DNA of 37,879 nucleotides from NCBI GenBank assembly GCA_965364395.1, contig CBDTXE010000001.1, forward strand, positions 1 to 37,879, in the 5' to 3' direction. This DNA is from an uncultured bacterium (GTDB lineage Bacteria; Patescibacteriota; Saccharimonadia; UBA4664; SCTI01). Below the pieces are notes generated by a model. The model searched no databases. It had not been told where the DNA came from and saw nothing but the letters and a program-made list of their open reading frames with translations. Positions 13,278-33,614 of the stretch are shown here, piece after piece. Made by a program: the position numbers and the translations under genes. How positions within the stretch are numbered: the first letter of the stretch is position 1; each line of letters begins with the position of its first letter.

Positions 13278-13304
13278 GGGCCCTAGGGAATCTCCCCAGG
13301 GCCC
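13278..13304 (-). terminator. GC-rich hairpin (10 bp, one mismatch) just 3' of CDS 13313..13729, with no U-tract
   Basis: GGGCCCTaGGG-aatct-CCCcAGGGCCC. Confidence 0.45.
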
Positions 13305-13312
13305 GCTTGGTG

Positions 13313-13729
13313 CTAGGCGGCCTGCTTCAGGCCGGCTTCTTGCGCCGCCGACTCCCAGTCGATTGACTCGAGGAGCCTGCGCGCTTCTGCCTGCGTGCGC
13401 TGTTGGCGCTGCCGCTCGCCGACGTCGATGGCGATCTGAACGATCCGGTCGTAGACGTGGGTGCGCCGCATGTGCTCTAGTGCGTTCGCCCCGGATCGCA
13501 TGCCCGTGAGCTCGTTGACGAAGTCTTGGAGATCCTGGACGGCCTGCTGGTCGAACAGGGGGTCCTTGGTAGTCAAGGCGACTGCGCGAAGTTCGATGAT
13601 GCGGCTCTTGGCCGAGTTGATGGCGCAGTAGTCGGGCGCCGGCAGGTCGTCGTCCACGCGTTCGTCGCTCTCCGCGCCCGACCCGTACCGGCTCAGGATG
13701 CCCTCAAGGATCATGCTCGCGTCAGTCAT
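13313..13729 (-). CDS. hypothetical acidic helical protein (GC-rich, foreign-looking)
   Basis: The start is set at MTDASM, which has SD AAGGAG 7 nt upstream. It shows strong G/C third-position bias. No family was recognised. Confidence 0.65.
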   Translation of the reverse strand: MTDASMILEGILSRYGSGAESDERVDDDLPAPDYCAINSAKSRIIELRAVALTTKDPLFDQQAVQDLQDFVNELTGMRSGANALEHMRRTHVYDRIVQIAIDVGERQRQQRTQAEARRLLESIDWESAAQEAGLKQAA

Positions 13730-14023
13730 GATGTGCTCCTTACAAGAAGTTTTGAGTACAAAAAAGGACGCACTCGGCCCTAGCGCAGCTAGGAATAGAG
13801 TCGACGTCCCGTCAGGGTCTTGCCCTTTTCTTTCCACTGAAAGTCAATGTTAGGTTGTCAATATGGATACTTTAATGGCAATGCTTTGATAGTACAACCC
13901 TTTTTTGTTGCGTTCGTACATATTATTTGGACTTTGAGGTTGTTATATATGTCAATTAGCACAATAAGTGGAGAGCCCGACTATTCACTGATCTGTAAAT
14001 GTATGCCATAATGGTTCGCACGC

Positions 14024-14101
14024 GGCGAGTGTAGCTCAGTTGGTTAGAGCGTCGGTTTGTGGTACCGAAGGTCGTGGGTTCAAGACCCATCACTCGCCCC
14101 A
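14024..14101 (+). tRNA. tRNA-His (anticodon GTG) with encoded G-1 and CCA
   Basis: G-1 pairs with C73. Acceptor GCGAGTG/CACTCGC and anticodon arm TCGGT-TTGTGGT-ACCGA. Confidence 0.9.
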
Positions 14102-14252
14102 AAGCATTGATATTGATTCGTAGTACATACTTTAATTCCGTAGCTTTGACATTCCGGCACGGGAGATGCCCAATGGTTTGGTACGCCCACGGTGGAAACG
14201 ATCAGTAGGGCACGCAGAGGAAGTATAAGGTAATAACGTCATCTATCCCAGC

Positions 14253-14281
14253 TTGCAAACACATGCAAGTTATAGTATAAT
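14253..14281 (+). promoter_or_regulatory. near-consensus sigma70 promoter (TTGCAA-N17-TATAAT), with the inverted repeat CTTGCA-N6-TGCAAG overlapping the -35
   Basis: Read directly. It lies in an AT-rich spacer upstream of the GC-rich ORFs 14377..15535. Confidence 0.5.
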
Positions 14282-14376
14282 ATCGCAGACTATTGCCACT
14301 GAGGTTTTTGTGGCAACAGACGTACGCAACATCGACATATATTGGCGACCATGACAACAAGAGAGGGGTAGCTGCC

Positions 14377-14763
14377 ATGCATCCAGACTACGTCGAAGTG
14401 CTGGTGCAGTACGACCGCCGAGGCCACGTGCTACGGGTGTGGTTCAAGAACCTTCGCGTCACGCGCAGGCGGTGCGTCTACATCTACGCCTTCAGCGGCG
14501 AAACCAACGTTCAGAGCTTCAACGCGCACCTGCAAGGCGCCCTGCGGAGCCTGGTACACGGCAACATCGGCGGCTTCGTGGTTGGCGACAATCACCTTTT
14601 GGAAATCCACCTGGAGTCCACCAACAAGGCATTCCACGGCAAGGCCGTACGCGCCGCAGACGTGATTCGCCAGCATCTGCTGAGCCGAGGCAAGGAGGTG
14701 AATGCCTCCACCAGCGAAGGCCTGACCAAGACCAACCCGCTGACCGCAGTGGTGGCGAGCTAG
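14377..14763 (+). CDS. hypothetical protein (GC-rich island)
   Basis: ATG preceded by GAGAGGGG. High GC3. No family was recognised. The upstream TTG extension in the ORF track was rejected. Confidence 0.6.
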   Translation: MHPDYVEVLVQYDRRGHVLRVWFKNLRVTRRRCVYIYAFSGETNVQSFNAHLQGALRSLVHGNIGGFVVGDNHLLEIHLESTNKAFHGKAVRAADVIRQHLLSRGKEVNASTSEGLTKTNPLTAVVAS

Positions 14764-14794
14764 GTCCCCGACTTACCCAGAAAGAGGTGAAGCC

Positions 14795-15535
14795 ATGCCC
14801 GTGCTGACCATCTATGGCATGCCGCCGGATCTCAAGGACAGCTCTGCCCTCACCCACCTGGTGCTGGAGGAGCTGCCTCGGGCTGTGGCAGCAGTGGAGG
14901 AGCTCGGAGTCAAGCCGGGCCAGGTGACGGCGTTCGTGCCGTCCGACCTTGTGAACGAGGCTCTCGGCGAGGAAATCATCGTCTTCATCGAGGGCCTGTG
15001 GATGCGCAAGGAGCGCACACCGGAGGTCCGGCAGCGGCTCGCCGACGCGGTACTGGACTGCATGCGCCGCTTCGCCGAGGAACACGTTTTCAGGTGCGAG
15101 ATGATTGAGGTGATCCCTCGGTCCCAGCGCCCGGAGGACGGGTTTGCTGACTGGCGGAAGGAGCCGGTTACCACCGCAACGCCACTCCCCCAGGTGGCCA
15201 GCTTCTCAACTTCCAGACCGGATCCCACGGCCGACATCAGGGCTTTCCAGGAGCAGGTGCAAAGCTTTGCGCGCGAGGCGTTGACCGAACTGAGGTCCAG
15301 ACTTGAGTCTGGCGAGCGCCAATTCACGATTGAGCGCCGATTCGACCGCTCGGCATGCCGTGAAGACGGCCTCGGCCGATACGTGCGGCTGAATTGGTTC
15401 CAGCGGCTCTTCTACGACATCGTCGATCCCGTTTGGGGTATGCAGGGGGTGGAAGCGTACGCCGACTACGCCAGCAAGGATGCTGACTCGATGGAAGAAG
15501 ACAACACGATGGTCTACAGGCTGTCGGTGGCCTGA
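14795..15535 (+). CDS. hypothetical protein; the N-terminal ~115 aa may be a fused tautomerase-superfamily-like domain (tentative)
   Basis: SD AAGAGGTGA lies upstream. The protein starts MPVLTIYG (Pro after the initiator Met) and is followed by two beta-alpha-beta-like units. The C-terminal half is unknown. Confidence 0.65.
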   Translation: MPVLTIYGMPPDLKDSSALTHLVLEELPRAVAAVEELGVKPGQVTAFVPSDLVNEALGEEIIVFIEGLWMRKERTPEVRQRLADAVLDCMRRFAEEHVFRCEMIEVIPRSQRPEDGFADWRKEPVTTATPLPQVASFSTSRPDPTADIRAFQEQVQSFAREALTELRSRLESGERQFTIERRFDRSACREDGLGRYVRLNWFQRLFYDIVDPVWGMQGVEAYADYASKDADSMEEDNTMVYRLSVA

Positions 15536-15537
15536 CA

Positions 15538-15580
15538 GGGCCCGAAGGAGTGATCACTGATGATCTTGGCCTTCGGGCCC
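15538..15580 (+). terminator. 11 bp perfect GC-rich hairpin after CDS 14795..15535
   Basis: GGGCCCGAAGG-21 nt loop (contains the palindrome AGTGATCACT)-CCTTCGGGCCC, followed by TCCTTTG. Confidence 0.5.
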
Positions 15581-15613
15581 TCCTTTGCGTCTGACATCTA
15601 TAGCGCGCAGCAC

Positions 15614-15642
15614 TTGACACAATAATACGCTTATGTTAAGGT
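15614..15642 (+). promoter_or_regulatory. sigma70-like promoter (TTGACA-N17-TAAGGT) upstream of the methyltransferase leader
   Basis: Read directly, in an AT-rich spacer. Confidence 0.4.
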
Positions 15643-15792
15643 ATATGCACCTTAATTGAAAGGAAAGTTATGGACACAGTTAACCTGTGCAACAAATAAC
15701 GGTTCCTGGTGATAAGCTTCCAACATCATTATTAGGAGTTTGTCACCGGGAACCGCTACGGAGTTCCCCTGACATACAAAGGAGGCCATGCA

Positions 15793-16512
15793 ATGGCTGA
15801 CGAGTATGCGGACCAGGCATCGGTATACGATGCCATCTATACCAACATGAAGGATTACCGCCGTGAGGCGGAACGGGTACGCGAGCTGATAGCGGCGCAT
15901 AGCCGCATCCCGGTTAAGACGCTGCTGGATGTGGCGTGCGGGACCGGCTTGCACGACCAGTTTCTGGCCGGGCACTATGAGCTCGAGGGGCTGGACTTCA
16001 GTCCGGCGATGCTCACCGAGGCGCGAAAGCGACTGCCCAACGTGGTTTTCCACCAAGGTGACATGAGCGGCTTTGACCTCGGCAAGCAGTACGACGCCGT
16101 CACCTGCCTGTTCAGTGCCATCGGCCACATGACTACCTTGGACATGATGCGGGCGGCAACCAGTTACATGGCTGCCCATCTCAAGCCCGGCGGCGTGCTC
16201 ATCATCGAGCCGTTCATCGACCCGAGCGACTGGGTACGGGGTAAGGTCAGCGTTGACCTGGTGCCAGGCAAGAAGATTGCCCGCGTGACGGAATCCAGGC
16301 TCGATGGGCATATCGCCCGCCTGGACATGCGTTTCTTCACCGACTGGGACGAGAAGGCAGGTACCGCCAGGTACTTCCGTGCCCATCACGATGTCGCCAT
16401 GTATACGAGGGACGAGTTCACGGCAGCCTTCAATGACGCCGGGCTGGACGTCTCGTATGACACGGCGGGCCTAATGGGCCGCGGTCTCTATATCGGCGTC
16501 AAGAACTCCTAG
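15793..16512 (+). CDS. class I SAM-dependent methyltransferase, TylM1/DesVI-like (aminosugar N,N-dimethyltransferase family)
   Basis: SD AAGGAGG lies upstream. Motifs are DY..EA, LLDVACGTG, GLD.S..ML, GDM..F.LG, AVTC.FS.IGH and C-terminal GRGL. The whole length aligns to TylM1 as I recall it. Confidence 0.88.
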   Translation: MADEYADQASVYDAIYTNMKDYRREAERVRELIAAHSRIPVKTLLDVACGTGLHDQFLAGHYELEGLDFSPAMLTEARKRLPNVVFHQGDMSGFDLGKQYDAVTCLFSAIGHMTTLDMMRAATSYMAAHLKPGGVLIIEPFIDPSDWVRGKVSVDLVPGKKIARVTESRLDGHIARLDMRFFTDWDEKAGTARYFRAHHDVAMYTRDEFTAAFNDAGLDVSYDTAGLMGRGLYIGVKNS

Positions 16513-16520
16513 CCGTTTCC

Positions 16521-16566
16521 GGTGCGCCCCGCCATACCCGTCCGCGGGTCCCTGGCGGGGCACGCC
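16521..16566 (+). terminator. composite GC-rich hairpin after the methyltransferase, with no U-tract
   Basis: GCCCCGCC...GGCGGGGC forms 8 perfect bp plus an outer extension. An inner stem ACCCG-tccg-CGGGT is also present. Confidence 0.45.
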
Positions 16567-16574
16567 AAAAGTTT

Positions 16575-16583
16575 TGATATAAT
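16575..16583 (+). promoter_or_regulatory. extended -10 promoter element (TGaTATAAT), about 210 nt upstream of rnj
   Basis: Read directly. No good -35 was seen. Confidence 0.35.
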
Positions 16584-16792
16584 CGCCGCAGTTGAGAGTA
16601 ACTCAGCGTGACCCATCCGGTCTCGATGAGCTGTTCTCAACCTTTAAGAGGAAATGAGAAAAGTATCTCGCAGCCGTTCTTAACGGCATAGCTTCCGCTG
16701 CGCATGCAGCTGTCTCAAGGCTTTATCCTTGCGACTCGTGAATATGAATAGTAAGTAAATCCGGATATAAGAATTCCGGTAGAAAGACGTAT

Positions 16793-18454
16793 ATGAATAA
16801 AACTAAACTACGCATCATCCCGCTAGGCGGCGTTGGTGAAATTGGCAAGAACATGAACGCGCTGGAATACGGCGACGACATTATAATCCTGGATCTTGGA
16901 TCTAAGTTTGCGTCGGATGACGAACCTGGCGTGGATGCTATCCTGCCTGACACCCGTTACCTTGAGCGCAACAAACATAAGATTCGAGGCGCAGTTATAA
17001 CCCATGGGCACATGGACCATATTGGCGGCGTTGGCCATTTTCTGAAAAAGTTCCCGGTGCCGGTTTTTGGGGCTCCGTTTACTATTGCCATGATCAAAAG
17101 GCAGCTTGAAGAGGCTGGATTGCACTTCAAACCACAACTACGAGTAATTAATCCGGACACGCATGAAAGGGTGCAATTGGGCCAATTTAATATTGAGTTG
17201 GTCCGTGTCGGCCATCCCATTCCTGACGCGACTGCTATCGTGATTCGTACGCCTGTCGGCGTGGTTGTCGATACAGGCGATTGGCGTTTCGAGGATGACC
17301 CAATCATCGGTCGCCCAATGGACATAGCGCGTTTTAAGGAGCTTGCCCAGGAAGGGGTAACACTGTTGATGGGCGACAGCACCAACGCGTTGGTTCCGGG
17401 TTCCACGGCAAAAGAAAGAGACATTGTGCCCGCATTTGACGAGCTGTTTAGCCGGGCACCGGGACGCGTCATACTGTCGATGTTTGCCAGCAACATTTTT
17501 AGGATCCAGCTTGCAATCAACGCTACGGCTAAGAGCGGACGAAAGCTGGTAGTGACCGGTCGAAGCATGCTGGCAAACATCGAGACAGCCATAAATACCG
17601 GCCACCTTAAAGTGCCGGCTGGGCTGATAGCCCGTACCGCAGACGGTATTGCGAGTTCAAGGATCACTATTCTGACCACCGGATCACAAGGCGAGCCTAA
17701 TTCAGGTCTTTGGCGCATGGCTGCCGGAGAGCATAAGGCTGTGAAGATTAAGCCAGGCGACTCGGTGATCCTGAGCTCCAGTATCATTCCGGGAAACTGG
17801 GAAAGGATCAATGAACTGGTTGACTCGTTGATGCGAGAGGGCGCGAAGGTCTACCAGCACAGTACCCGGCACTTGGACGGGGCAGGTATTTTGCATGCTT
17901 CCGGCCATGCCAGCCGAGAGGATTTGATGGCATTGCTGAAGCTATTGAAGCCAAAACACCTTGTGCCAATCCACGGAAACTACTCCATGCAGCTGGCGCA
18001 TGCCAGTATTGCTGGGAGGGCGGGCATTGGGGATAACAATATTTTCATTCTCAATATCGGAAACGTATTGGAGCTTTCCAGTAAGAGCGTAATGCTTGGA
18101 GAGCCAGTAGAGTCAGGTGAAATTTATCTACAGGGCTTGTTGGAAGGACGCTTGGGGGACGAAGTAATACATGAACGTGTGAAATTGAGTAGCGAAGGAG
18201 TCGTAATTGTAAACGCAGTTGTCAGTGCTACCAGCGGAAAGCTCATGGGTAGGCCAAGTATCGTTTCCCGCGGGTTCGTCCACATGAAAGACAACCAGCC
18301 ATTGATTAACCAAATTGCTTTGGAATCACGGAAGGCTATCGAAAAAGCCTGCGGTGTTTCAGTTGAGATTTCCGTACGTGAGTACATTGGAGACCAAATC
18401 AAAAAGGCAACCGGCCGCCAGCCCTTAGTGCTGACTGCCATCACGAAGGTATAA
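16793..18454 (+). CDS. rnj: ribonuclease J
   Basis: Metallo-beta-lactamase motif HGHMDHIGG, a beta-CASP region and the typical RNase J length and C-terminal domain. Confidence 0.93.
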   Translation: MNKTKLRIIPLGGVGEIGKNMNALEYGDDIIILDLGSKFASDDEPGVDAILPDTRYLERNKHKIRGAVITHGHMDHIGGVGHFLKKFPVPVFGAPFTIAMIKRQLEEAGLHFKPQLRVINPDTHERVQLGQFNIELVRVGHPIPDATAIVIRTPVGVVVDTGDWRFEDDPIIGRPMDIARFKELAQEGVTLLMGDSTNALVPGSTAKERDIVPAFDELFSRAPGRVILSMFASNIFRIQLAINATAKSGRKLVVTGRSMLANIETAINTGHLKVPAGLIARTADGIASSRITILTTGSQGEPNSGLWRMAAGEHKAVKIKPGDSVILSSSIIPGNWERINELVDSLMREGAKVYQHSTRHLDGAGILHASGHASREDLMALLKLLKPKHLVPIHGNYSMQLAHASIAGRAGIGDNNIFILNIGNVLELSSKSVMLGEPVESGEIYLQGLLEGRLGDEVIHERVKLSSEGVVIVNAVVSATSGKLMGRPSIVSRGFVHMKDNQPLINQIALESRKAIEKACGVSVEISVREYIGDQIKKATGRQPLVLTAITKV

Positions 18455-19387: not shown

Positions 19388-19416
19388 TTGCCATTAAATG
19401 AAGGTGATGGTATAAA
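19388..19416 (+). promoter_or_regulatory. sigma70-like promoter (TTGCCA-N17-TATAAA)
   Basis: Read directly. It points toward the terminator and the tRNA-Gln pair. Confidence 0.45.
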
Positions 19417-19505
19417 ACTAATGCTATGAATGCTGTATTTCAACAACGGGAGTGCCATTAATCCGCCAAGCGGCTCTTTGTTGTATCGACAATATCCAAG
19501 AAGCA

Positions 19506-19530
19506 AGCGCCGCTAGAGCGGCGCTTTTTG
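19506..19530 (+). terminator. canonical intrinsic terminator 2 nt upstream of tRNA-Gln
   Basis: AGCGCCGC-taga-GCGGCGCT (8 bp) followed by TTTTGTT. Confidence 0.6.
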
Positions 19531-19531
19531 T

Positions 19532-19605
19532 TGCCTTGTCGTCTAACGGTAGGACGCCTGACTCTGGATCAGGTAATTATGGTTCGAATCCATGCGAGGC
19601 AGCCA
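19532..19605 (+). tRNA. tRNA-Gln (anticodon CTG), CCA encoded
   Basis: U1:A72 pair, anticodon arm CCTGA-CTCTGGA-TCAGG and T loop GGTTCGAATCC. Confidence 0.88.
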
Positions 19606-19608
19606 TAG

Positions 19609-19699: not shown

Positions 19700-20125
19700 G
19701 TGGAACATCAAAGCCATGAAGGCGAAATAATCAAAGACTATTTGGATGACTTACGAAAAGTTGGTCCGTCCAAGCCTCTAGGCTATCTTCCGTTGCCTAC
19801 GATTGAAAAATTTGCGCCCTATTCCGCGGAAGGTATTGCAGAGGAAAGAAAGCGAAATGGCCAGGAAGTCCTCCAGCTTTCAGAAGACCAATGCCATGTT
19901 ACTGGGGGCGCATTGTATGTGTATGACCGTGAAGTACTCCAAAGGTTATTGGACGAGCATACCGATATTCTGACAAAGTGGTCGTGGCCTACTTCTGCGG
20001 ACGAATTTGTATTAAAGCTAGCAACGGAAACCGCAACGCCCAAAACGGCACTATTTGACCTGGTAGCAGACTCGTTCGCTGACAACAATAATCCCGGTCG
20101 AACTGATAGCCCGGCTATAGACTAA
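19700..20125 (+). CDS. hypothetical protein (start uncertain; GTG at 19700 or TTG near 19742)
   Basis: The ORF frame is open from inside tRNA-Gln, and there is no in-frame ATG after the tRNA. No family was recognised. Confidence 0.45.
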   Translation: MEHQSHEGEIIKDYLDDLRKVGPSKPLGYLPLPTIEKFAPYSAEGIAEERKRNGQEVLQLSEDQCHVTGGALYVYDREVLQRLLDEHTDILTKWSWPTSADEFVLKLATETATPKTALFDLVADSFADNNNPGRTDSPAID

Positions 20126-20169
20126 CCCACGCAAACATGACATAATGTGTCATTCTGTCTTCCTGATGG

Positions 20170-20820
20170 ATGCATTCGTGTGACAACCTCGACGGAAGGA
20201 CTCCTTTGTACGAAACGTATTCGGAAATCGTGCTGAAGTACCTGCTGGGCCCGTTGCTGGCACTGGCGTGCTTGCTCGCCGTGCGCGATCTCATCAAGGA
20301 TCGGGAGCGCAGTGTCTGGGCCTGGCTGCTGGTCGGCCTGACAATGCTCTATCCACTCGGAAAGCTCTGCGCCTATTGGCAGGTGGGGCCAAACGCGTTC
20401 CGGTGGTGGATGGGCGACTTCGGCTCCATCGCATTCTACGGAATGTTCGTGGCGCAATGGGTTGCCGTCCGCCGTACCGGTACCTACGACGTTTTCCGCG
20501 TCTGGTTGCCCGTTGGTGCCACTGTGCTGGCAGCAGCATGCATCTTGGAAGGACTGCAGTACGTCGCTCAGGCCCAGAACTCGGGTGGTCTGTCCGCCCG
20601 CTGGGACCCCATCGACTTGCTCAGTTACTTCCTGGGTTTCGCGGTCGCAACCTTGTTGGTTTGGCTGCACCAGCGCCAGTACGGCCGCCGGCTTGCCGAG
20701 TGGGAGGCGCAGGTGGCCATGGCCAAGCAGGAGCGCTCGCGTGAACAGGCGCAGCGCGCCGAATCACGTCGGCCGCGGGGGAAGCAGAAGAAGCGCCGCC
20801 ACGGCACAAGCCGCCGTTAG
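20170..20820 (+). CDS. hypothetical 5-TM membrane protein with a highly basic C-terminal tail (GC-rich, foreign-looking)
   Basis: About five hydrophobic helices, then a QERSREQAQRAESRRPRGKQKKRRHG tail. GC3 is very high. An alternative TTG start at 20206 has SD GGAAGGA. Confidence 0.62.
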   Translation: MHSCDNLDGRTPLYETYSEIVLKYLLGPLLALACLLAVRDLIKDRERSVWAWLLVGLTMLYPLGKLCAYWQVGPNAFRWWMGDFGSIAFYGMFVAQWVAVRRTGTYDVFRVWLPVGATVLAAACILEGLQYVAQAQNSGGLSARWDPIDLLSYFLGFAVATLLVWLHQRQYGRRLAEWEAQVAMAKQERSREQAQRAESRRPRGKQKKRRHGTSRR

Positions 20821-20860
20821 CCGTCCATGGCAACACTTAACGGCGCACGACGGTGCTCAT

Positions 20861-20883
20861 CGCCCCCGCTTCAAGCGGGGGCG
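20861..20883 (+). terminator. 9 bp GC-rich hairpin after CDS 20170..20820, with no U-tract
   Basis: CGCCCCCGC-ttcaa-GCGGGGGCG. Confidence 0.45.
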
Positions 20884-23316: not shown

Positions 23317-23472
23317 ACCCTCTATTCCGCTGTGCTTGCAGGCGCGCCGGATGAGCGGATAATTATATTAAGTCTAGAACAGCGCAAAAACGGCGCTGAG
23401 CTATAGCCCCAATGAGAGCGTATTGGGATTAAGTAGCGTAACTTCTCGGCCTTAAAGCTCGAGGGAGAAGTT

Positions 23473-23610
23473 ATGGCTAAGGATCGTATACCACTGTCGG
23501 TTTTTTTGCGCCGAAAAGAAGGCGATAAAAGACAAGAGAACGTCCTAAAGGAGCGCCGTTTTGAAGAAGTTGCGAGCAAGCTAATGCCGGGATGGCGCGT
23601 TAAGCAATAG
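23473..23610 (+). CDS. candidate small basic protein (45 aa), below the ORF-track length cutoff
   Basis: SD GAGGGAG lies 5 nt upstream of the ATG. The product is MAKDRIPLSVFLRRKEGDKRQENVLKERRFEEVASKLMPGWRVKQ. The stop abuts the convergent reductase stop. Confidence 0.3.
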   Translation: MAKDRIPLSVFLRRKEGDKRQENVLKERRFEEVASKLMPGWRVKQ

Positions 23611-25444: not shown

Positions 25445-25473
25445 TTGACGCATGTATAAGTAAATGGTATAAT
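25445..25473 (+). promoter_or_regulatory. near-perfect sigma70 promoter (TTGACG-N17-TATAAT)
   Basis: Read directly. It points into the GC-rich patch 25550..26040. Confidence 0.55.
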
Positions 25474-25605: not shown

Positions 25606-25920
25606 GTGGCTACCTTGTGGTACCGTTCCAACTGCTACGGGAACATGCCCGAGTGCAACTTCCGCCCGCACGGCGATTTGAAGTCGTGTGACGGCGGCGA
25701 CGAGTCGCCGGCGGCGGAAGCGCGCAGGCGGGAACTGATCGAACTCACGGGCGACCGCAACACCCACCGTACGCTCCGGCTGGTTATCCATGCCGGCCAC
25801 GAGGACCAGGTGGCGGCGATCGCCGGGCGGCTCAGCCGCCCGTTCAACGAGTTCACCTCGGAAACGGCCATTGTGATTTTGGCCGCCGAGGGGCTTCCCC
25901 ATCTGGGAGCGGCCGCCTAG
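25606..25920 (+). CDS. hypothetical protein (104 aa, GTG start; GC-rich, foreign-looking)
   Basis: SD GAGAGGAG lies 5 nt upstream of the GTG. The frame has a strong G/C third-position bias. The alternative ATG start at 25645 has a poorer SD. Confidence 0.45.
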   Translation: MATLWYRSNCYGNMPECNFRPHGDLKSCDGGDESPAAEARRRELIELTGDRNTHRTLRLVIHAGHEDQVAAIAGRLSRPFNEFTSETAIVILAAEGLPHLGAAA

Positions 25921-26005
25921 CGGCTCGCCTACGCAAAAACGACCACGGAGGTGCAGACATGCGATGTTAGGCTGAGTTTCATCTCAACCTTCATACTGGC
26001 CCGCG

Positions 26006-26038
26006 GAAGAGGCTCGCGCTTCAACCGCGGGCCTCTTC
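26006..26038 (+). terminator. 13 bp GC-rich hairpin between the convergent CDS 25606..25920 and gpmA
   Basis: GAAGAGGCTCGCG-cttcaac-CGCGGGCCTCTTC followed by TATTT. It may serve both strands. Confidence 0.5.
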
Positions 26039-26041: not shown

Positions 26042-26674
26042 TTACGCCGGCGGCAGCGCGGTATCGATCATTTTTACTTCCTTATCCACCAGCTTGCCGC
26101 TGTCATCCACGCGGTAGCGAAGGACCGTGCCAAAGACCATCTCAAGATCCTCTACGCCCTTGTCGCTAATGGATTCAATGTATTTCATTAGCGATCGGAT
26201 GGAATTTCCGTGCGCGACCACTAGGATTGTTTTGCCGTCTTTGAGCTGCGGCAGGATCGTATCCAAATAAAAAGGTACCGTGCGCTCATAGACTTGCTTT
26301 AGCGACTCGCCCCCGGGAATGTCCTTGTCCCATCCTCGTCTGATTTGGTTGAACTCGTCCTCGCCAACGGCGTCCTTGACTTCCCACTTGTTTTTGCCCG
26401 TGTAAACTCCATAGTCGCGCTCATTAATGGCGCCGGCGGTCTCATATGGAAACTCCGCGCCCATGCCCTGCATCATCTCCTGGAGTGTCTCCTCCGTCCG
26501 GTGCTGCTGGGAGACGTATGCTAGGTCGACGTGGATTCCCCTCAGTGTCTCCCCGTACTTGCGGCCTTCCTCGCGGCCTTTCTTTGTTAAACGAATGTCC
26601 GTTATGCCGGTCCATTTGCCGAGCGCGTTCCACTCGGATTCCCCATGGCGCACGATTATCAGTTCACCTTGCAT
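26042..26674 (-). CDS. gpmA: 2,3-bisphosphoglycerate-dependent phosphoglycerate mutase (histidine phosphatase family)
   Basis: LIIVRHGESEWN, the catalytic His motif and AHGNSIR. I prefer the second ATG (MQGELIIVRHG), which has SD GAGG. The ORF-track start is 26701. Confidence 0.9.
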   Translation of the reverse strand: MQGELIIVRHGESEWNALGKWTGITDIRLTKKGREEGRKYGETLRGIHVDLAYVSQQHRTEETLQEMMQGMGAEFPYETAGAINERDYGVYTGKNKWEVKDAVGEDEFNQIRRGWDKDIPGGESLKQVYERTVPFYLDTILPQLKDGKTILVVAHGNSIRSLMKYIESISDKGVEDLEMVFGTVLRYRVDDSGKLVDKEVKMIDTALPPA

Positions 26675-26771
26675 GGCTGCCTCGCTCTTATTGGTAACCA
26701 TTATGCCGGAAGGTCGCGGGCGGTGCTATGAAGATCACAGCCCGCATAGTGATTATTGCTATGATAACGCT

Positions 26772-27383
26772 ATGGCACGTTCAACATACAGACAGTGGGT
26801 AAAGACGGTGACATTGGGCGAGTTCCTTGGTTTCATCATCCCTTCGGTCGTGGGCGCAGTGACGTTTGCCATGAATTTACCCCAGGTTGTCCAGATGGGC
26901 GCGATGGTGGTCGCCGGAATCGGGGAAGGTGCGGTGTTGGGCTCATTTCAGGCCCGGGTGCTAGGCAGCCATATACCCAAGTTCAGCCGGCCCGAATGGG
27001 TCAAGGCCACGATGGCGGGAGCGGGCTTCGCTTGGCTACTAGGCATGGTTCCAAGTACGATTGGCGAGCGCTTAACGGAGGTTCCATTACTGGTCCTAGT
27101 CCCGGCCATGGCAGTTCTGGGTACCGCCCTACTGTTCTCTATTGGTGTACTGCAATACCGGGTGCTGAGGCGGTATGTCAAGGGAGCCAAGAAGTGGATT
27201 TGGATCAACGTGGCCGCGTGGCTGATGGGACTCGTCGTCTGCTTTACTTTTATCGGCATCGCGCCTGAAGGTGTAGCGCCGGTAATTGGGTTCAGTGCTG
27301 CCGGTGGCCTGGGAATGGCATTTGCGATGGCGGCGGTTACCGGCATTTATGCGGCTCGCGCCATGGAGAAGAAGCGGCTATAG
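26772..27383 (+). CDS. hypothetical membrane protein
   Basis: About 6 TM helices. The start is trimmed to MARSTYRQW because the longer ORF overlaps gpmA on the opposite strand. Confidence 0.62.
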   Translation: MARSTYRQWVKTVTLGEFLGFIIPSVVGAVTFAMNLPQVVQMGAMVVAGIGEGAVLGSFQARVLGSHIPKFSRPEWVKATMAGAGFAWLLGMVPSTIGERLTEVPLLVLVPAMAVLGTALLFSIGVLQYRVLRRYVKGAKKWIWINVAAWLMGLVVCFTFIGIAPEGVAPVIGFSAAGGLGMAFAMAAVTGIYAARAMEKKRL

Positions 27384-27405: not shown

Positions 27406-27431
27406 AACCGGGGCCTATGCCCCGGTTTTTG
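27406..27431 (+). terminator. canonical intrinsic terminator
   Basis: AACCGGGGC-ctat-GCCCCGGTT followed by TTTGT. Confidence 0.7.
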
Positions 27432-27499
27432 TACTGCTTGCTAAGGCGCCCATAATCTCACTGGTATACACTGAGTGCTTATAAACATGTGGAGGTATC

Positions 27500-27838: not shown

Positions 27839-27935
27839 GTTAGGTGCGTGTCCGGGCGACTGATCTAAGGGGTGACGCCGGTCATTGCAGGCGACGTTCT
27901 TGAGGCGTAGTTATGGGGAGTGATGGAGAATAGCA

Positions 27936-28277
27936 ATGAACGATCAAATAGGCATGATAGTCGTGACAACCGAGGGTGTGCAGGGATACGACGTCGCCGA
28001 ACCTAAGGTCCAGGTGTTTGGTCTGGTGGTGCGTAGCCGGGGCTTGGGTGGAAATATTAGGGCTGGCCTGAGATCGCTGGCAGGAGGTGAAATCATCGAG
28101 TACACGGAGATGCTTGAAGACGCCCGCCGGAACGCCCTTGACCGCATGGTTAAGAACGCGGCCGCGATGGGCGCCAACGGCGTTGTGCGGATGCAATTTG
28201 ACTCATCGGAAATGGGAAACACCATGAGCGAGATCGTGGCGTACGGAACGGCCGTGATACTAAAAAAGCAACCGTGA
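27936..28277 (+). CDS. YbjQ/UPF0145 family protein (putative heavy-metal-binding)
   Basis: The pattern ...G..V....G.V.G..VRS..........L....GGE...Y...L...R..A..RM...A...GANGVV...FD is typical of the family. Confidence 0.85.
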   Translation: MNDQIGMIVVTTEGVQGYDVAEPKVQVFGLVVRSRGLGGNIRAGLRSLAGGEIIEYTEMLEDARRNALDRMVKNAAAMGANGVVRMQFDSSEMGNTMSEIVAYGTAVILKKQP

Positions 28278-28576
28278 GTCCGTTGCGAATTCTGTTAGGC
28301 ACGTACGGGGTGGCCTGTCTGGCCGGTGCCGCGTACTTGCTGTGGCGCGGCGTGTCTGGCTGGACGTCGCTAGCTGTAGCTTATCTTGTGTTTAACGGCG
28401 CCCTAATTATGATGGCGGCGGTCTTGCGCAGTCGGCGTTACAAGGCCAAAGCCGGCGCCGATGGCCCATGGCAGCCGACGGGCGAAAAATTTGTGGATGA
28501 CACGTCAGGCCAACTGGTCGAGGTTTACGTCAACCCTACAACCGGCGACCGGAAATACGAGCCAATCCGGCGCTAG
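28274..28576 (+). CDS. hypothetical small membrane protein
   Basis: The GTG start overlaps the ybjQ-like stop. There are two or three TM helices. Confidence 0.5.
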   Translation: MSPLRILLGTYGVACLAGAAYLLWRGVSGWTSLAVAYLVFNGALIMMAAVLRSRRYKAKAGADGPWQPTGEKFVDDTSGQLVEVYVNPTTGDRKYEPIRR

Positions 28577-28644
28577 CGGCAAAAATAGGGTGCGACTCCA
28601 CCAAGGCCTTTGCAATTATTGGTTCAAGCAAATATTGTACGAAC

Positions 28645-29430
28645 ATGGATTTCTTTTATGCCATCGCCGCCGCGGTGGCGATCAGCCTAATTTCGCTCAT
28701 CGCCATATTGGTTGTGCCGCGCAAATGGGACCACTCAATGGAGCAGCGGTTGCTGGGTTTTGCCGTAGGCGTCATGCTGACGACCGCTACTCTGCACCTG
28801 CTTCCTGAAGCGGTCGAAGCCACGGCAGGACACGGTGCGTATTACGCGTTGCTGGCCGGAATCATCGGGTTCCTGTTTCTGGAGCGGTTGTTCCGCGGGT
28901 TCCATTCCCACCAACAAGGCTCGCGGAAGGCGCCAGGCTACTTGGTTATCGTGGGCGATGGCTTGCATAACTTCATCGACGGCTTGGCCATAGGAGTCGC
29001 CTTTCAGGTTAGCCCCACTCTAGGCGTCGTGACGACGGTGGCGATTGCCGCGCACGAAATTCCACAGGAAATTGCGGACTTTGTGGTACTGCGCAAGGCC
29101 GGCTTTAGCCGCCAGCGGGCGCTGCTGGTCAATGCTGCCTCGGCGTTCATGGCGCTGCTGGGAACCGTGCTGACATTTGGCTTTGGCGACTTTTTCCACG
29201 CGTATGAGGGCTTGGCGCTGGCATTGACCGCGGGCATCTTTTTGTACATTGCAGCGGCTGACATTATCCCTGAGCTGAACCATGAGCATACGGCCGGCAA
29301 CAAGTTTGCCCTACCCATGGTCCTGGGTGTGTTGGTGATTATCGCGCTGACGATGGTAGTGCCCGAACATCAAGATACCTCCCAGCCGGAAGCCGCCAGC
29401 CGCAGCGCCCAAGCTATAATAGGGCCATGA
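28645..29430 (+). CDS. ZIP family divalent metal transporter (ZupT-like)
   Basis: Motifs HNFIDGLAIG and HEIPQEIADF, with about 8 TM helices. Confidence 0.88.
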   Translation: MDFFYAIAAAVAISLISLIAILVVPRKWDHSMEQRLLGFAVGVMLTTATLHLLPEAVEATAGHGAYYALLAGIIGFLFLERLFRGFHSHQQGSRKAPGYLVIVGDGLHNFIDGLAIGVAFQVSPTLGVVTTVAIAAHEIPQEIADFVVLRKAGFSRQRALLVNAASAFMALLGTVLTFGFGDFFHAYEGLALALTAGIFLYIAAADIIPELNHEHTAGNKFALPMVLGVLVIIALTMVVPEHQDTSQPEAASRSAQAIIGP

Positions 29431-30794
29431 TCCAAATCTATGACACTCTAACTAAGGGACTGCGGCCCCTTGAGCCAACGCAGGGAAAAAAAGTGCGGAT
29501 GTTTGTCTGCGGGCCAACCGTTTACGACTATTCACATTTGGGGCACGGTAAGACGTACACTCAGTTTGACTTTATTGCGCGCTATCTCCGTTACCGGGGC
29601 TATGAGGTCACATACCTGCAAAACATCACCAATATTGATGACAAGATCATCGCCCGGGCGCAGGAGGGGGGCATTCAGTGGGAAGGCCTGACCCGTGAGT
29701 ATGAAGGCTACTACCACCAGGATATGCAAGCGCTGCATATCAGCGGAGTGAGCAAGTACGCCCGTGCCACCGACTATATCCAACAGATCATCGCCCAGGT
29801 GCAGGCGCTGCTGGATAAGGGGCACGCCTATGTGGCGGAAGACGGGGTCTATTTTGAAGTGGCGACGTTCGAGGGCTACGGCAAGTTATCGGGGCGGACG
29901 CACGTGGAGGAAGATGACGCGCGCACCCGCATTGACGAGAGCCAGCATAAGCGCGGCTGGAACGATTTTGCATTGTGGAAGTTTGCCAAGCCCGGCGAGC
30001 CGGAGTGGGAGGCGCCGTTTGGCAAGGGGCGGCCTGGGTGGCACATTGAGGACACGGCTATCACCGAGGCAGAGTTTGGCCCGCAGTATGAACTGCACGG
30101 CGGCGCCATCGACCTGATATTCCCGCACCATGAAGCTGAACTGACACAGATGGAGGCGGTTTCGGGCGTGTCACCAATGGTCCAGGTGTGGATGCATGGT
30201 GGGTTCTTGAACACCGGCAACCGGAAAATGGGCAAGAGCCTGGGTAACTTCACGACCCTGCGGGAAGCCTTGGCAAAATATGATTACCGGGCGCTGCGCT
30301 ACTTGTACCTCAGTGCGCATTACCGCTCACCGCTGGAGTTCAGTGAGGAAACCCTACAGCAGGCGGCGGCCAGCGTTGGTAGGCTGGACGAGTTTACATT
30401 CCAGGTTGAAGGCGGCTTTGATGATGCCGCATCCGCCGCTGCGGTGGAAACTACACGCGCGGCCATTGAGTCGGCCCTGGATAACGATTTCAATACACCC
30501 GCGGCTTGGGCGGCGATCCACGAGTTCATCAAAGAAGAGAACGGATCGCGCCGACCCGGAAAACGAGTGTGGGCGTTGCTTGGGCAGATCAATGAGTACT
30601 TTGGCGTCTTTGACCTGGAAGGCGGCACCAACGAAGACCCGGAAATCGGCCGGTTGGTTGAGCTGCGCGACAAACTGCGCGGCGAGCGCCAATTTGCAGA
30701 GGCGGACCGGGTACGCGAGCAGCTTAGCCGCATGGGCGTCAAGCTTTACGACACCGATGAGGGCACAAAATGGCGCCGCACCGGCAGTCAGTAA
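29427..30794 (+). CDS. cysS: cysteine--tRNA ligase
   Basis: CGPTVYDYSHLGH (HIGH-type motif), the KMGKS (KMSKS) motif and the typical class I CysRS layout. Confidence 0.95.
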   Translation: MIQIYDTLTKGLRPLEPTQGKKVRMFVCGPTVYDYSHLGHGKTYTQFDFIARYLRYRGYEVTYLQNITNIDDKIIARAQEGGIQWEGLTREYEGYYHQDMQALHISGVSKYARATDYIQQIIAQVQALLDKGHAYVAEDGVYFEVATFEGYGKLSGRTHVEEDDARTRIDESQHKRGWNDFALWKFAKPGEPEWEAPFGKGRPGWHIEDTAITEAEFGPQYELHGGAIDLIFPHHEAELTQMEAVSGVSPMVQVWMHGGFLNTGNRKMGKSLGNFTTLREALAKYDYRALRYLYLSAHYRSPLEFSEETLQQAAASVGRLDEFTFQVEGGFDDAASAAAVETTRAAIESALDNDFNTPAAWAAIHEFIKEENGSRRPGKRVWALLGQINEYFGVFDLEGGTNEDPEIGRLVELRDKLRGERQFAEADRVREQLSRMGVKLYDTDEGTKWRRTGSQ

Positions 30795-30864
30795 AGCGCG
30801 CGATCATTTACGAATGCCCATCAGAGACGCTATTATAGCGTAAGCGTTTTAAGTTGGTGGGCGA

Positions 30865-33294
30865 GTGGGCGGACCGCAGGCAAAGCAGACCAAAAGGCCT
30901 CCCGAGCGGGTGAGGGGCAACATAGACCGTCTGGCTATCGGGCTGTCGGTCCTGCTAGTGCTGCTGGCGCTTAGTAACTACGCCGCGCGGCATCCGTACT
31001 TATTCCAGTGGACGTGGAATTCCTTTGCGATCCTCTCGGCAATTATGGTGGCGGCCAACGTTGTGCTGCTGTACGTTCTAGCCCGCCGTCCAGGTAACGC
31101 CGCGATGAAGTTTTGGTTTGGGTTGGACATGGCCGCGGCCACGTTGTGGGGATTTTCAGAGCTTATGATGCGCGTTTCCGCCACGCCGGAGGCGGCCTTT
31201 TTTTGGGGCCGTTTTTCGTATATTGGCCTGGCGGTTCTGCCGGTAGGGTTTTATATGTTTGCCCGGACGTACGTGGGTCAGACCAGTTATCAGCGCGACG
31301 TCGTGACCTCGCTCTGCATCATGCTGTCGGCCGGCATGATGATAGGTATCATGAACAACGACCAGAAGTTTGAGGACATGACACTGACGCCTTTTGCCTG
31401 GGGCTTTGACACTCCCTCGTCGCCCGTTATAAGCATATTTTCCGCCTGGGTAGGGATACTGATAGTACTAGCGCTGGCGCGGTTTGTTGTCCACTATCGA
31501 CGCACAGCCATAGCCGCCCAGCGGGCCCAAATCCGGGTAATCGTCGCAGCGGTGACAATCTCATTAATCGGCACCATCGTGACGGACGTGGTCATGCCCC
31601 GCGCCGGTATCGTGGTACTGCCTATTGGCGTCCTGATTAACACCAGCGTTTCCATGGCGGTACTGTATGCCATCCGTAAGTACGACACGTTTTCAGTCGA
31701 TTTCTCGATGGTGGCCAGTGAGATCCTCGACGCGCTGGGTGAGGCCGTGGTGGTAACCGACAGCCGTTTCAACGTGCGGTTGGCCAACCGCCGGACACTG
31801 GAGTTGACGGGGCTGACCAAGGAGGCGACCGACAGGCTGCCGATGCAAAAACTGCTCGGAAGGGAGGTAAAGCCGCATTTGCAGCGCATCGCCTCAACGC
31901 TTGAGCACGGCAGCACCGCCGAAATCAGTGAGTACGCGTTGCCAAGGCGCCGCCGAGCCGCCCTGGCCGTTCACGTGGCGGTGGCTAAATTGGTGGTGCC
32001 TTACCCTGCCTACATGTTTGTCCTCAGCGACATCACCCAGCTCAAGGCGGCATTTGACCACGAGGTTGATGGCCGGCGTAAGCTTGAGTCCGCCAACCGC
32101 GCTCTGGAGGTGCAACAGAAGGCTTTGGCAAAACTGCTGCAGCAGGATAAGCAGCTGCAAAAAGAACTAGTGCGCCAAAATGAAACGATCGAAATAACAG
32201 TGCAAGAGCGGACTCAGGAGGCTAACGCCGAACGGGCTCGCCTGGAGGCATCAATCAACGCCCTTAACTTGGGGTTTGTGATGACTGATAGCCACCAGGG
32301 AATCATTATCGCCAACTCGGTTGCCCGCAGGTTGTTGGCGGGCGGCAGCATGGAGCATCTGTCGGTAGCCTTGTTGCAGCGCGGGCTGGGTCCGGTGATG
32401 GATTTGAAGTCGGCGATTAGCCAAAGCATGGCTACTCTGACGCCGCTGAAGTACCCATCCGTTTTGGCCGCCGGCAAAGTTCTTAGTATCTTTGTGGCGC
32501 CGGTGATTGAGCACAGCGACAACCGAGCGCTAGGCGCGGTCATCCTGATTGACGATATCACCGAGGCCAAAGCCATTGAGCGGTCACGGGATGAGTTTTT
32601 CTCAATTGCTTCACACGAATTGCGCACGCCCCTGACGGCGATCCGTGGCAATACCCAGATGATGCGGGAGTACTACAAAGACGTCTTTAGTAAGGACAAG
32701 GGCTTGCAGGAAATGCTGGAGGATATCCACGACTCGAGCGTCCGTTTGATTACCATCGTTAACGACTTTCTTGATACGTCGCGGCTGGAGCAAGGAAAAA
32801 TAACATTTGAGTTCAGTAGCTTTTCCATTGGCGAATTAGTGGATGACGTCTTGGGTGAAATAACCAAGGGCGGCCTGAATCCCAAAGTGCGGTTAGTCAA
32901 TGAGGTAGGGGCGGCCATACCGGCCGTGCGGGCGGACCGCGACCGTCTGAAGCAGGTGATTATCAACCTAGCGGGCAACGCCGTGAAATTTACCGACAAA
33001 GGCGTGGTGACCGTTAGGGCGGGCGTTGACCGCGGCATGGTCCGCCTGGATGTGGTTGATACCGGCAAAGGCATTTCTAAAGAGTCGCGCCACCTGCTTT
33101 TCCGCAAATTCCAACAGGCGTCAAAAAACATTCTGACTCGCGACTCAACCCGGTCCACGGGGCTTGGCCTGTACATATCTAAGCTGATTATGAATGGCAT
33201 GGGCGGCCACATTTGGCTGGACAGCTCAGAAGAGGGCAAGGGATCGGTGTTCTCCTTGACCGTGCCGGTAGCTGGGCAAAAACATCTTCAATGA
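30865..33294 (+). CDS. sensor histidine kinase with an N-terminal 7-TM sensor module, PAS-like and coiled-coil regions
   Basis: H-box FFSIASHELRTPLTAIRG, N-box NLAGNAVKFT and G-boxes DTGKGI and GLGLYISK. It uses a GTG start and there is no adjacent response regulator. Confidence 0.9.
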   Translation: MGGPQAKQTKRPPERVRGNIDRLAIGLSVLLVLLALSNYAARHPYLFQWTWNSFAILSAIMVAANVVLLYVLARRPGNAAMKFWFGLDMAAATLWGFSELMMRVSATPEAAFFWGRFSYIGLAVLPVGFYMFARTYVGQTSYQRDVVTSLCIMLSAGMMIGIMNNDQKFEDMTLTPFAWGFDTPSSPVISIFSAWVGILIVLALARFVVHYRRTAIAAQRAQIRVIVAAVTISLIGTIVTDVVMPRAGIVVLPIGVLINTSVSMAVLYAIRKYDTFSVDFSMVASEILDALGEAVVVTDSRFNVRLANRRTLELTGLTKEATDRLPMQKLLGREVKPHLQRIASTLEHGSTAEISEYALPRRRRAALAVHVAVAKLVVPYPAYMFVLSDITQLKAAFDHEVDGRRKLESANRALEVQQKALAKLLQQDKQLQKELVRQNETIEITVQERTQEANAERARLEASINALNLGFVMTDSHQGIIIANSVARRLLAGGSMEHLSVALLQRGLGPVMDLKSAISQSMATLTPLKYPSVLAAGKVLSIFVAPVIEHSDNRALGAVILIDDITEAKAIERSRDEFFSIASHELRTPLTAIRGNTQMMREYYKDVFSKDKGLQEMLEDIHDSSVRLITIVNDFLDTSRLEQGKITFEFSSFSIGELVDDVLGEITKGGLNPKVRLVNEVGAAIPAVRADRDRLKQVIINLAGNAVKFTDKGVVTVRAGVDRGMVRLDVVDTGKGISKESRHLLFRKFQQASKNILTRDSTRSTGLGLYISKLIMNGMGGHIWLDSSEEGKGSVFSLTVPVAGQKHLQ

Positions 33295-33368
33295 GCCTGG
33301 CCCTTGTATTAATCTAAACACTCCGGCCCATGGCCGGCTCTTCATATCCCCGAGAGAGGGAGGCACGT

Positions 33369-33578
33369 ATGTGCGCGCAGTCCATGCTGGCGGAGGCCAT
33401 CACCTACCGGCAGCAGCTGAGCTGCGGCGATCCGGACCACGCTGACGGCCCCGAGCCCGACTGCGTGGCCTGCCGCGAGCAGCGGAGCTTGGCGCTGCAA
33501 AGCATGGCAGAGCTGGGGTTCTTCCCGGACGAGCTGGTGCCCGCGCAACAAGGCGGAACCATGCGCCGCGGCGCATAA
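33369..33578 (+). CDS. hypothetical small Cys-containing protein (69 aa; extremely GC3-rich)
   Basis: SD GGGAGG lies 5 nt upstream of the ATG. Nearly every codon ends in G or C. It contains one CxxC. Confidence 0.45.
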   Translation: MCAQSMLAEAITYRQQLSCGDPDHADGPEPDCVACREQRSLALQSMAELGFFPDELVPAQQGGTMRRGA

Positions 33579-33582
33579 CATC

Positions 33583-33614
33583 GGGGCCGGCGGACACTTG
33601 CGTCCGCCGGCCCC
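33583..33614 (+). terminator. 13 bp perfect GC-rich hairpin, no U-tract
   Basis: GGGGCCGGCGGAC-acttgc-GTCCGCCGGCCCC, 5 nt after the stop codon. Confidence 0.5.

Follow-up and report, generated by a model that had tools for sequence, protein, structure and literature searches.

Do compact GC-rich hairpins that lack a U-tract mark genes of foreign origin, or are they how transcription units ordinarily end in the genome that carries them? The question is raised by a 37,879-nucleotide (nt) stretch of DNA from an uncultured bacterium of the Saccharimonadia (GenBank assembly GCA_965364395.1, contig CBDTXE010000001.1; the whole stretch is called the window below), in which an earlier note described six such hairpins, each at the 3' end of a GC-rich open reading frame (ORF). 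In mycobacteria and other high-GC Actinobacteria, hairpins without a U-tract ('I-shaped') have been predicted to be terminators, and the note read the window as holding two terminator dialects, one brought in with acquired genes and a canonical one belonging to native genes. Genome-wide comparison shows that the six hairpins are the ordinary 3'-end signal of this genome and not a foreign dialect. We consider it probable that they are a 3'-end signal of the lineage standing after self-contained accessory units, and that the GC-rich patches are either cargo of a pool circulating within the Saccharibacteria or fast-evolving, lineage-specific genes.

The window is contig C1 of G000, a metagenome-assembled genome (MAG) of 1.25 Mb in 164 contigs with 57.6% GC, an estimated completeness of 98.9% and an estimated contamination of 0.71%. 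The GC content at third codon positions (GC3) of its genes is unimodally distributed (0.69 +/- 0.08), so that 'GC-rich', as applied to the patch genes, is a relative term. Relatives compared by genome measured 0.6–1.7 Mb, the closest having 54% RNase J identity to G000; a same-family relative, G004 (768 kb, 51.8% GC), was used for gene-by-gene comparison. The HU protein of the window shares a 90%-identity cluster with proteins that bear the NCBI names 'Patescibacteria group bacterium' and 'Candidatus Saccharimonadales bacterium'. RNase J identity to two genomes named as Saccharibacteria was 38-39%, no different from that to Chloroflexota and Actinomycetota.

Six hairpins and their tails

A sliding 70-nt minimum free energy scan did not discriminate, giving imperfect structures of -20 to -35 kcal/mol throughout the coding sequence of the window, and was replaced by a strict-stem scan (at least 8 contiguous Watson–Crick pairs, loop up to 25) together with shuffle z-scores, for which dinucleotide shuffles were used with the six window hairpins. 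The strict scan returned 20 hairpins in the window, 10 of them intergenic or at gene edges. These ten are the six hairpins listed here (P1 to P7 being the ORFs of the patches), the two that had been called canonical, and extras at 20812-20845 and 23439-23473.

13277..13305, minus strand: hairpin H1, CGGGCCC...GGGCCCG, 5 nt past the P1 stop, T-poor tail, -29.9 kcal/mol
15537..15581, plus strand: hairpin H2, 12-bp stem AGGGCCCGAAGG/CCTTCGGGCCCT, tail TCCTTTGC, 1 nt past the P3 stop, z -3.4
16521..16566, plus strand: hairpin H3, tail AAAAGTTTT, 8 nt past the methyltransferase stop, z -3.9
20861..20883, plus strand: hairpin H4, 10-bp stem with 9 G-C pairs, tail TATCATTTAT (5 T in 8), z -3.2
25998..26038, strand unassigned: hairpin H5, between convergent genes, z -3.1
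33583..33614, plus strand: hairpin H6, 13-bp stem, 92% GC, tail TGCCCTGC, 4 nt past the P7 stop, z -3.1

All six hairpins are thus present where they had been placed, with folding energies of -21 to -39 kcal/mol. For five of them the z-scores (-3.1 to -3.9) mean that they outdo nearly all dinucleotide shuffles; H1 is weaker (z -1.8, with 10 of 300 shuffles equally good) and also lies ~100 nt downstream of a plus-strand tRNA-Arg gene. Their sequences are unrelated to one another. The ORFs ahead of them have GC3 values of 0.78-0.82 against the genome mean of 0.69, which corresponds to about the 85th-93rd percentile. The distance from ORF stop to hairpin is 1-40 nt in five cases, H4 sitting 40 nt past the P5 stop, and 84 nt for P6. 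The hairpin noted at 26006 (H5) is at least shared with a native gene: on the minus strand, the gene for a gpmA-like His_Phos_1 phosphatase (26042-26701), which is convergent with P6 and of native composition, has its stop only 3 nt away.

The tails are less uniform than had been described. Thymines were counted in the 8 nt past the last G-C pair, with A-U pairs trimmed so that bidirectional terminators were scored correctly. By this count the six tails hold 2-5 T in 8, without an uninterrupted run of at least 4 at the stem base, and none has the 7-9-nt U-tract of a canonical terminator. The absence of a continuous T-run is thus borne out, but three tails (15538, 20861 and 26006) contain 4-5 T in 8 nt, interrupted, and only those at 13278, 16521 and 33583 are truly T-poor. 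A consensus scan ranked 20861 as the best terminator-like site. The extra hairpin at 20812-20845 (CGCCGTTA...TAACGGCG) overlaps the P5 stop, 16 nt upstream of H4, so that P5 has tandem 3' stem-loops.

3'-end hairpins across the genome

For the whole of G000, the most stable hairpin downstream of every complete gene was recorded. Such hairpins are specific to 3' ends: structures of <= -18 kcal/mol were found in 91% of convergent but 32% of divergent intergenic regions. The median offset of the hairpins from the stop codon is about 9-14 nt. Among hairpins of <= -15 kcal/mol, the share of tails with at most 3 T in 8 was 75-77% after low-GC3, 73-77% after mid-GC3 and 63-65% after high-GC3 genes; the share with at least 5 T in 8 was 3-11% after low- and mid-GC3 genes and 15-20% after high-GC3 genes. 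In Fisher tests, the T-rich tails stood at 17/103 (16.5%) for high-GC3 genes against 22/243 (9%) for the rest (p 0.06), a trend opposite to the one claimed, and the T-poor tails at 64% against 77% (p 0.017). At convergent ends a T-poor hairpin follows 45-62% of low- and mid-GC3 genes and 58% of high-GC3 genes. The tail pattern of G004 matches that of G000. With T-poor tails in the majority whatever the GC3 class, the native style of this genome is the T-poor GC hairpin. The division into two dialects fails on these counts: U-tract-less hairpins are also the majority form after native genes, where canonical tails are not enriched, and G004 is alike. Genome-wide, T-poor hairpins follow genes of native composition as well, which by the test that the earlier note had itself set speaks against it.

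These counts bear directly on the explanation from which we started, namely that each patch was taken up recently and independently from high-GC Actinobacteria, the likely hosts, and kept the U-tract-less terminator of its donor among natives that use canonical ones. Within the window, strong T-poor hairpins do coincide with GC3-rich ORFs, as such imports would have it; across the genome, and again in G004, the coincidence dissolves into a style that prevails after native genes too.

Only two of the window sites examined, at 19505 and 27406, carry a TTTT(T) tail.

19505..19533, plus strand: canonical terminator-like hairpin followed by TTTTGTTG, directly before tRNA-Gln (19532-19605)
27406..27434, plus strand: canonical terminator, 9-bp stem and TTTTTGT, 22 nt past a membrane-protein gene

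The second agrees with the idea that canonical terminators mark native genes, the membrane-protein gene before it (about 26772-27383) having a GC3 of 0.64, but the first, noted at 19506, follows no protein gene. Its stem (19505-19526) and TTTTGTTG stop 5 nt short of tRNA-Gln. Ahead of it, within 19400-19533, stand a TG-extended -10-like box, TGGTATAAA, and then a putative mini-ORF of 11 codons, ATGAATGCTGTATTTCAACAACGGGAGTGCCATTAA; mini-ORF and terminator together may constitute an attenuator or a small RNA upstream of two tRNA-Gln genes.

Where high-GC3 genes do stand apart is in how often they have a hairpin of their own. This was so for 103/128 (80%) of them and for 243/577 (42%) of the rest (odds ratio 5.7, p 1e-15). 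Among tandem genes with a downstream gap of 80 nt or more, 96% of the high-GC3 genes had a hairpin, compared with 34-65% otherwise, and with composition controlled by shuffle z-scores, hairpins of z <= -2.5 followed 57% versus 17-27%. High-GC3 genes without a G004 homologue had a hairpin in 94% of cases. We suggest that the hairpins stand out in the window because the patch genes are monocistronic units, whereas native genes lie mostly inside operons.

In Patescibacteria of 35-49% GC (L150, L153, L155 and L156), the genes for distant homologues of P5 and of the N-terminal domain of P3 end in textbook U-tract terminators. This suggests that the T-poor style tracks the GC content of the lineage rather than the origin of the gene, and that loss of the U-tract goes with the higher GC of this family.

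What might such hairpins do? Rho (TIGR00767) scored above the cut-off in 0/21 genomes of the order, G000 included, while eight control genomes did score. With no Rho detected, the hairpins are most likely intrinsic terminators. In the mechanism we propose, the signal of the lineage would be a compact, GC-rich stem-loop, set a few nt past the stop codon and followed by hardly any U-tract or by none; each GC3-rich ORF or ORF pair would run from its own sigma70-type promoter to its own hairpin end; and the hairpins would serve as intrinsic terminators, probably with the aid of NusA/NusG or similar factors, and would also guard the mRNA 3' end. On balance we lean towards this double role, a factor-assisted, U-tract-independent intrinsic terminator and 3'-end stabiliser, and give a clearly smaller chance to the hairpin being mainly a stabiliser or a processing stop.

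A fuller form of the latter idea, which partly overlaps with ours, is that the hairpins are stabilisers or processing stops that bar 3'-5' exonucleases and set the mature mRNA ends, transcription itself ending downstream or by other means. The missing U-tracts fit this: in one study (PMC3993855), mycobacterial U-tract-less hairpins are reported to have failed to terminate in vitro and mycobacterial RNA polymerase to need the U-tract at intrinsic terminators. The closeness of the hairpins to stop codons and the presence of two RNase J copies are likewise what a protective role would lead one to expect. Set against this, an order in which Rho goes undetected requires some other terminator, the hairpins are concentrated at convergent gene ends, where termination is required, and the hairpin leader with an upstream ORF (uORF) described below could be understood as an attenuator only if hairpins alter the access of polymerase or ribosomes. 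We hold this explanation to be unlikely.

GC3-rich genes and the methyltransferase cassette

If the hairpins are native, the genes before them still require an account. By tblastn, the fraction of G000 genes with a homologue in G004 falls steeply with GC3, from 60-65% at 0.65-0.75 to 33% at 0.75-0.80, 16% at 0.80-0.85 and 2% above 0.85; reciprocally, 15% of the G004 genes at z >= 1.5 are shared versus 84% of its modal class. The low-GC3 tail (<0.60) is also depleted, 38% being shared with G004 versus 60-65% for modal genes, so that both compositional tails are enriched in accessory genes. That the GC-rich ORFs are non-core was thus correctly seen, sharing with G004 dropping to 2-16% at GC3 >= 0.80. 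Some 182 genes reach a GC3 of 0.77 or more; they form about 134 islets (1-4 genes each, 127 kb in all or roughly 10% of G000), lie on many different contigs and also show higher GC1, higher GC2 and a higher content of Gly, Ala, Arg and Pro (GARP). The clustering of several acquisitions within 20 kb, which had been called unusual, loses its force here: with about 134 islets spread over the genome, several small patches in 20 kb are the norm. High-GC3 genes are slightly enriched near tRNAs (8.8% vs 6.5%). The islets resemble acquired DNA in their deviant composition and in their absence from a near relative; mobility genes and att repeats were not found in the window.

The genes and promoters of the patches are as follows.

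13313..13729, minus strand: P1, 138-amino-acid (aa) orphan ORF, GC3 0.79, between tRNA-Arg (13099-13175) and tRNA-His (14025-14101)
14253..14281, plus strand: sigma70-like promoter of the P2-P3 unit, TTGCAA-17-TATAAT, 10/12 consensus matches
14377..15535, plus strand: two-gene unit of P2 (14377-14763, 128 aa) and P3 (14795-15535, 246 aa), GC3 0.78-0.80
15614..15642, plus strand: promoter of the methyltransferase cassette, TTGACA-17-TAAGGT, from an alignment of the window with L021, L024 and L109
15670..15792, plus strand: conserved leader with a 9-codon uORF, a hairpin, GGAGTTCCCC and the Shine–Dalgarno (SD) sequence AAAGGAGG, conserved in 4 copies
15793..16512, plus strand: class I S-adenosylmethionine (SAM) methyltransferase, Methyltransf_25, GC3 0.79
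20118..20146, plus strand: weak sigma70-like promoter upstream of P5, TG-extended -10, 9/12 matches
20170..20820, plus strand: P5, membrane-protein ORF with a basic C-terminal tail, GC3 0.78, start possibly 20206
25445..25473, plus strand: near-consensus promoter of the P6 unit, TTGACG-17-TATAAT, TG-extended, 11/12 matches
25606..25920, plus strand: P6, orphan ORF of ~104 aa, GC3 0.79, no family match
33369..33578, plus strand: P7, 69-aa orphan ORF, GC3 0.82, 35-75 nt past a histidine kinase gene

The promoters reported at 14253, 25445 and, more weakly, 20115 (here 20118) were all listed by a promoter scan, which found none for P7, in agreement with the earlier reading. The scan did not pick up the site at 15614, which is upheld by its conservation in homologous cassettes. 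As had also been stated, no mobility genes accompany the patches in the window; nor were att-like direct repeats of tRNA 3' ends found around the islands there, and Rfam returned only tRNAs from the window. A 23-nt direct repeat (ATACTTTAAT..GCTTTGA, 78% identity) at 13867-13889 and 14127-14149 stands on either side of tRNA-His and seems to be no obvious att site. G000 has two RNase J paralogues (C1:16793-18454 and C71:101-1777, 49% mutual identity), and an order-level relative, G026, has two RNase J genes in tandem. In an empty-site and synteny test, the rnj loci of relatives had no tRNA within 1.5 kb and showed no empty site.

Of the patch genes, only the methyltransferase could be followed into other genomes. 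No paralogues of any patch gene were found in G000, P1-P3 and P5-P7 have no homologue in G004, where the methyltransferase is represented only by a family member of 40% identity, and the same six proteins match no Pfam, PHROG or NCBIfam family. Searches of metagenome and viral contig collections returned nothing for P1 or P2. Among 5.8 billion proteins, a single one is a partial homologue of P3 (57% identity), encoded on a 2.2-kb contig where a TTGACA/TATAAA promoter precedes its gene and a T-poor hairpin follows; the N-terminal ~120 aa of P3 define a small family, with relatives of 29-41% identity in 5/300 Patescibacteria genomes. The best relative of P5 among 1.8 billion representatives has 35% identity. 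The orphan proteins gave one marginal match in 401 Actinomycetota genomes. The search for orphans in genome sets used a concatenated-protein query of limited sensitivity, which scored just 3/8 candidates in G000 itself, so that 'no match' for P2, P6 and P7 is weak evidence.

The methyltransferase is homologous over its full length (residues 2-237) to the DesVI/TylM1/CalS10 sugar N,N-dimethyltransferases, with PDB matches to 3bxo (E 4e-49), 6uk5 (E 5e-48) and 3pfg (E 9e-46), and we predict it to be a DesVI/TylM1-like sugar N,N-dimethyltransferase. Its closest relatives (60-79% identity) are encoded on metagenome contigs with Saccharibacteria-like gene content; identity is at most 49% among GTDB species representatives and no more than 45% in Actinomycetota. 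In the tree it belongs to a 12-member clade (Shimodaira–Hasegawa-like approximate likelihood ratio test, SH-aLRT, 95) that includes an NCBI 'Saccharimonadales' protein, while Actinomycetota sequences fall elsewhere. Judged by gene content and homology, then, its nearest relatives lie on Saccharibacteria-type contigs, and the other patch genes are orphans or near-orphans.

The methyltransferase homologues of 65-79% identity that lie in copies of the cassette occupy different neighbourhoods: L021 is beside a tRNA, L024 is on a 46%-GC contig, L108 follows an ABC exporter, and L109 is accompanied by a serine recombinase (Resolvase/Recombinase) gene and a Replic_Relax gene. Nucleotide homology between copies extends from the -35 box to just past the 3' hairpin. 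That hairpin is homologous in 5/5 copies, H3 of the window included, with differing stem sequences; in the copies it folds with -31 to -37 kcal/mol, lies 8-13 nt past the stop and has a U-tract in L108 only. The proposal that each ORF arrived with its own 3' end is in this case supported, with the addition that promoter and leader travel too, and this is the one gene for which it can be traced. Whether the background GC3 is 0.69, about 0.63 or about 0.45, that of the methyltransferase stays at about 0.78, and this constancy points to a GC-richer source pool, of which no source was identified. The cassette appears to have been exchanged among Saccharibacteria.

The leader shows an organisation of its own. 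The uORF (15670-15699, MDTVNLCNK*) ends in a stop codon that abuts a hairpin of ~17-21 bp (15700-15755), and its length and position are kept in the 4 copies (MDTGNLCIQ*, MDTGNSCIE* and MLTDEICMQ* among the others, L021, L024 and L109), where the leader stem has undergone compensatory changes. The 3' arm of this hairpin, CCGGGAACCG, can pair alternatively with the invariant GGAGTTCCCC just before the SD sequence. An Rfam search of the leader gave no known riboswitch or family.

What do these results leave of an actinobacterial origin? It is in keeping with the absence of the patch genes from G004, with a GARP share that rises from 0.30 to 0.34 in patch proteins, and with a methyltransferase family that includes actinobacterial antibiotic-sugar enzymes. 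The actinobacterial methyltransferases are nevertheless distant in the tree, P3 and P5 have no close homologue anywhere, and the promoters are of an AT-rich sigma70 consensus type common to the other Saccharibacteria-type copies. No actinobacterial donor was found for any gene tested. Together with the tail counts, we take this to make import from Actinobacteria very improbable.

Alternatively, the GC3-rich genes could be lineage-specific, fast-evolving or de novo genes whose GC3 has been raised by GC-biased gene conversion or by selection at recombining accessory loci. Their orphan character (P1-P3 and P5-P7, and 6/10 of the longest genes with GC3 >= 0.84, which have no Pfam match) and the same skew in G004, relative to its own lower baseline, would be explained in this way. 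So would an aspartate/ornithine carbamoyltransferase gene (ATCase; C39:4921-5946), whose GC3 is 0.88 between neighbours of 0.66-0.71: its nearest relatives, at 50-54% identity, lie on contigs of the candidate phyla radiation (CPR) type, that is Patescibacteria, where the gene has a native GC3 of 0.71-0.73. A Xer-like integrase adjoins the ATCase relatives, and a Xer-like gene lies ~4 kb from the C39 ATCase. The methyltransferase does not fit this picture, since its cassette occurs at unrelated loci and beside a recombinase, which indicates movement, and since a GC3 of 0.78 on a 46%-GC contig, among neighbours of ~0.45, would be hard to reach in place. As an account of the patches at large we think it rather improbable, somewhat more so than a purely protective role of the hairpins.

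Finally, the patches might be assembly chimeras or contamination by binning from a GC-rich organism, given that the genome is a MAG in 164 contigs and that there is some enrichment of high-GC3 genes towards contig ends (0.6 vs 0.44). The patches of the window lie inside a 38-kb contig amid native genes and tRNAs, with sharp ORF-level borders and native-type promoters, the estimated contamination is low, and the same architecture recurs in the independent assemblies L021, L024, L027 and L109. We therefore give an artefact hardly any credence.

Interpretation and relation to known systems

Taken together, a local observation made in the window has been confirmed with caveats, and its interpretation is partly supported. 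We favour the reading in which the hairpins are the lineage's own 3'-end signal and the patches are pool cargo or lineage-specific genes. Several points weigh against it. Termination at the hairpins is predicted from sequence, and hairpin-only termination is not established biochemistry (PMC3993855). The high GC3 of the accessory fraction is not accounted for, the methyltransferase having 0.78 even on a 46%-GC contig. P1, P2, P6 and P7 have no detectable relatives, and the methyltransferase is the only cassette traced to other genomes. G004 is the single relative analysed as a whole genome, the gene calls come from a simple, purpose-written codon-usage caller, and the choice of thresholds (dG <= -15 or -18, T counts in 8 nt) was arbitrary, though outcomes were stable across them.

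More tentatively, a GC3-rich pool of mini-cassettes of the form promoter-(uORF)-ORF-hairpin may be exchanged among soil Saccharimonadales. Such cassettes would need no integron machinery to enter the genome at numerous loci and would account for about 6-14% of its genes, their hairpin possibly serving both as a U-tract-independent terminator, in a lineage without Rho, and as a cassette boundary. At least one unit, the methyltransferase, appears to move as a cassette among Saccharibacteria. About one-tenth of this 'reduced' genome consists of GC3-rich accessory genes that are probably promoted and terminated singly, which bears on gene gain in ultra-small episymbionts. It has long been disputed whether a hairpin by itself is enough to make RNA polymerase terminate; if U-tract-less hairpins end transcripts without Rho, the Saccharibacteria offer a clean natural test of hairpin-only termination. 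Most ends of transcription units in these genomes will escape terminator predictors for which a U-tract is obligatory.

In placing a GC-rich stem-loop right after the stop codon, at unit ends and between convergent genes, the hairpins resemble the canonical (L-shaped) terminators of E. coli and Bacillus. They differ in that the 7-9-nt U-tract is absent or broken in about two-thirds to three-quarters of hairpins genome-wide and in 6/6 here, just about 9-17% of G000 hairpins having at least 5 T in 8. The genome is not AT-rich, and its gene ends carry strong GC hairpins that no U-trail follows; these recall the I-shaped hairpins of mycobacteria, at which termination is itself disputed (PMC3993855). 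Unlike that case, the present one concerns Patescibacteria of 52-58% GC with no detectable Rho, and hairpins that are not confined to foreign-looking genes.

The patches share with horizontally acquired islets an atypical composition, absence from the nearest relative, some tRNA adjacency and, for one cassette elsewhere, a neighbouring serine recombinase. They differ in being very small (1-4 genes each), in numbering about 134 per genome and in being GC-richer than the core; the window, moreover, has neither integrase nor att repeats, and a donor outside the lineage was not identified. Single-ORF units that end in an imperfect inverted repeat and lie at differing loci across genomes are also reminiscent of integron cassettes (ORF plus attC), from which they differ in having a promoter per unit and hairpins without a conserved core sequence. 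No integron integrase (IntI) scored above the cut-off in G000, and the integron reading was rejected on this ground and because the hairpin sequences are mutually unrelated.

The methyltransferase leader, with its short uORF, its stem and an alternative pairing of the 3' arm with a segment that otherwise could mask the SD sequence, has the four-segment layout of the erm and cat attenuators in 4 copies. Unlike these, it precedes a gene for a DesVI/TylM1-like methyltransferase, not an Erm rRNA methylase, has no known inducer, and would work by a mechanism deduced from its pairing potential. Measured against these systems, what is new is modest: a further lineage whose 3' hairpins are poor in U, and with it a notable genome-wide set of GC3-rich mini-cassettes.

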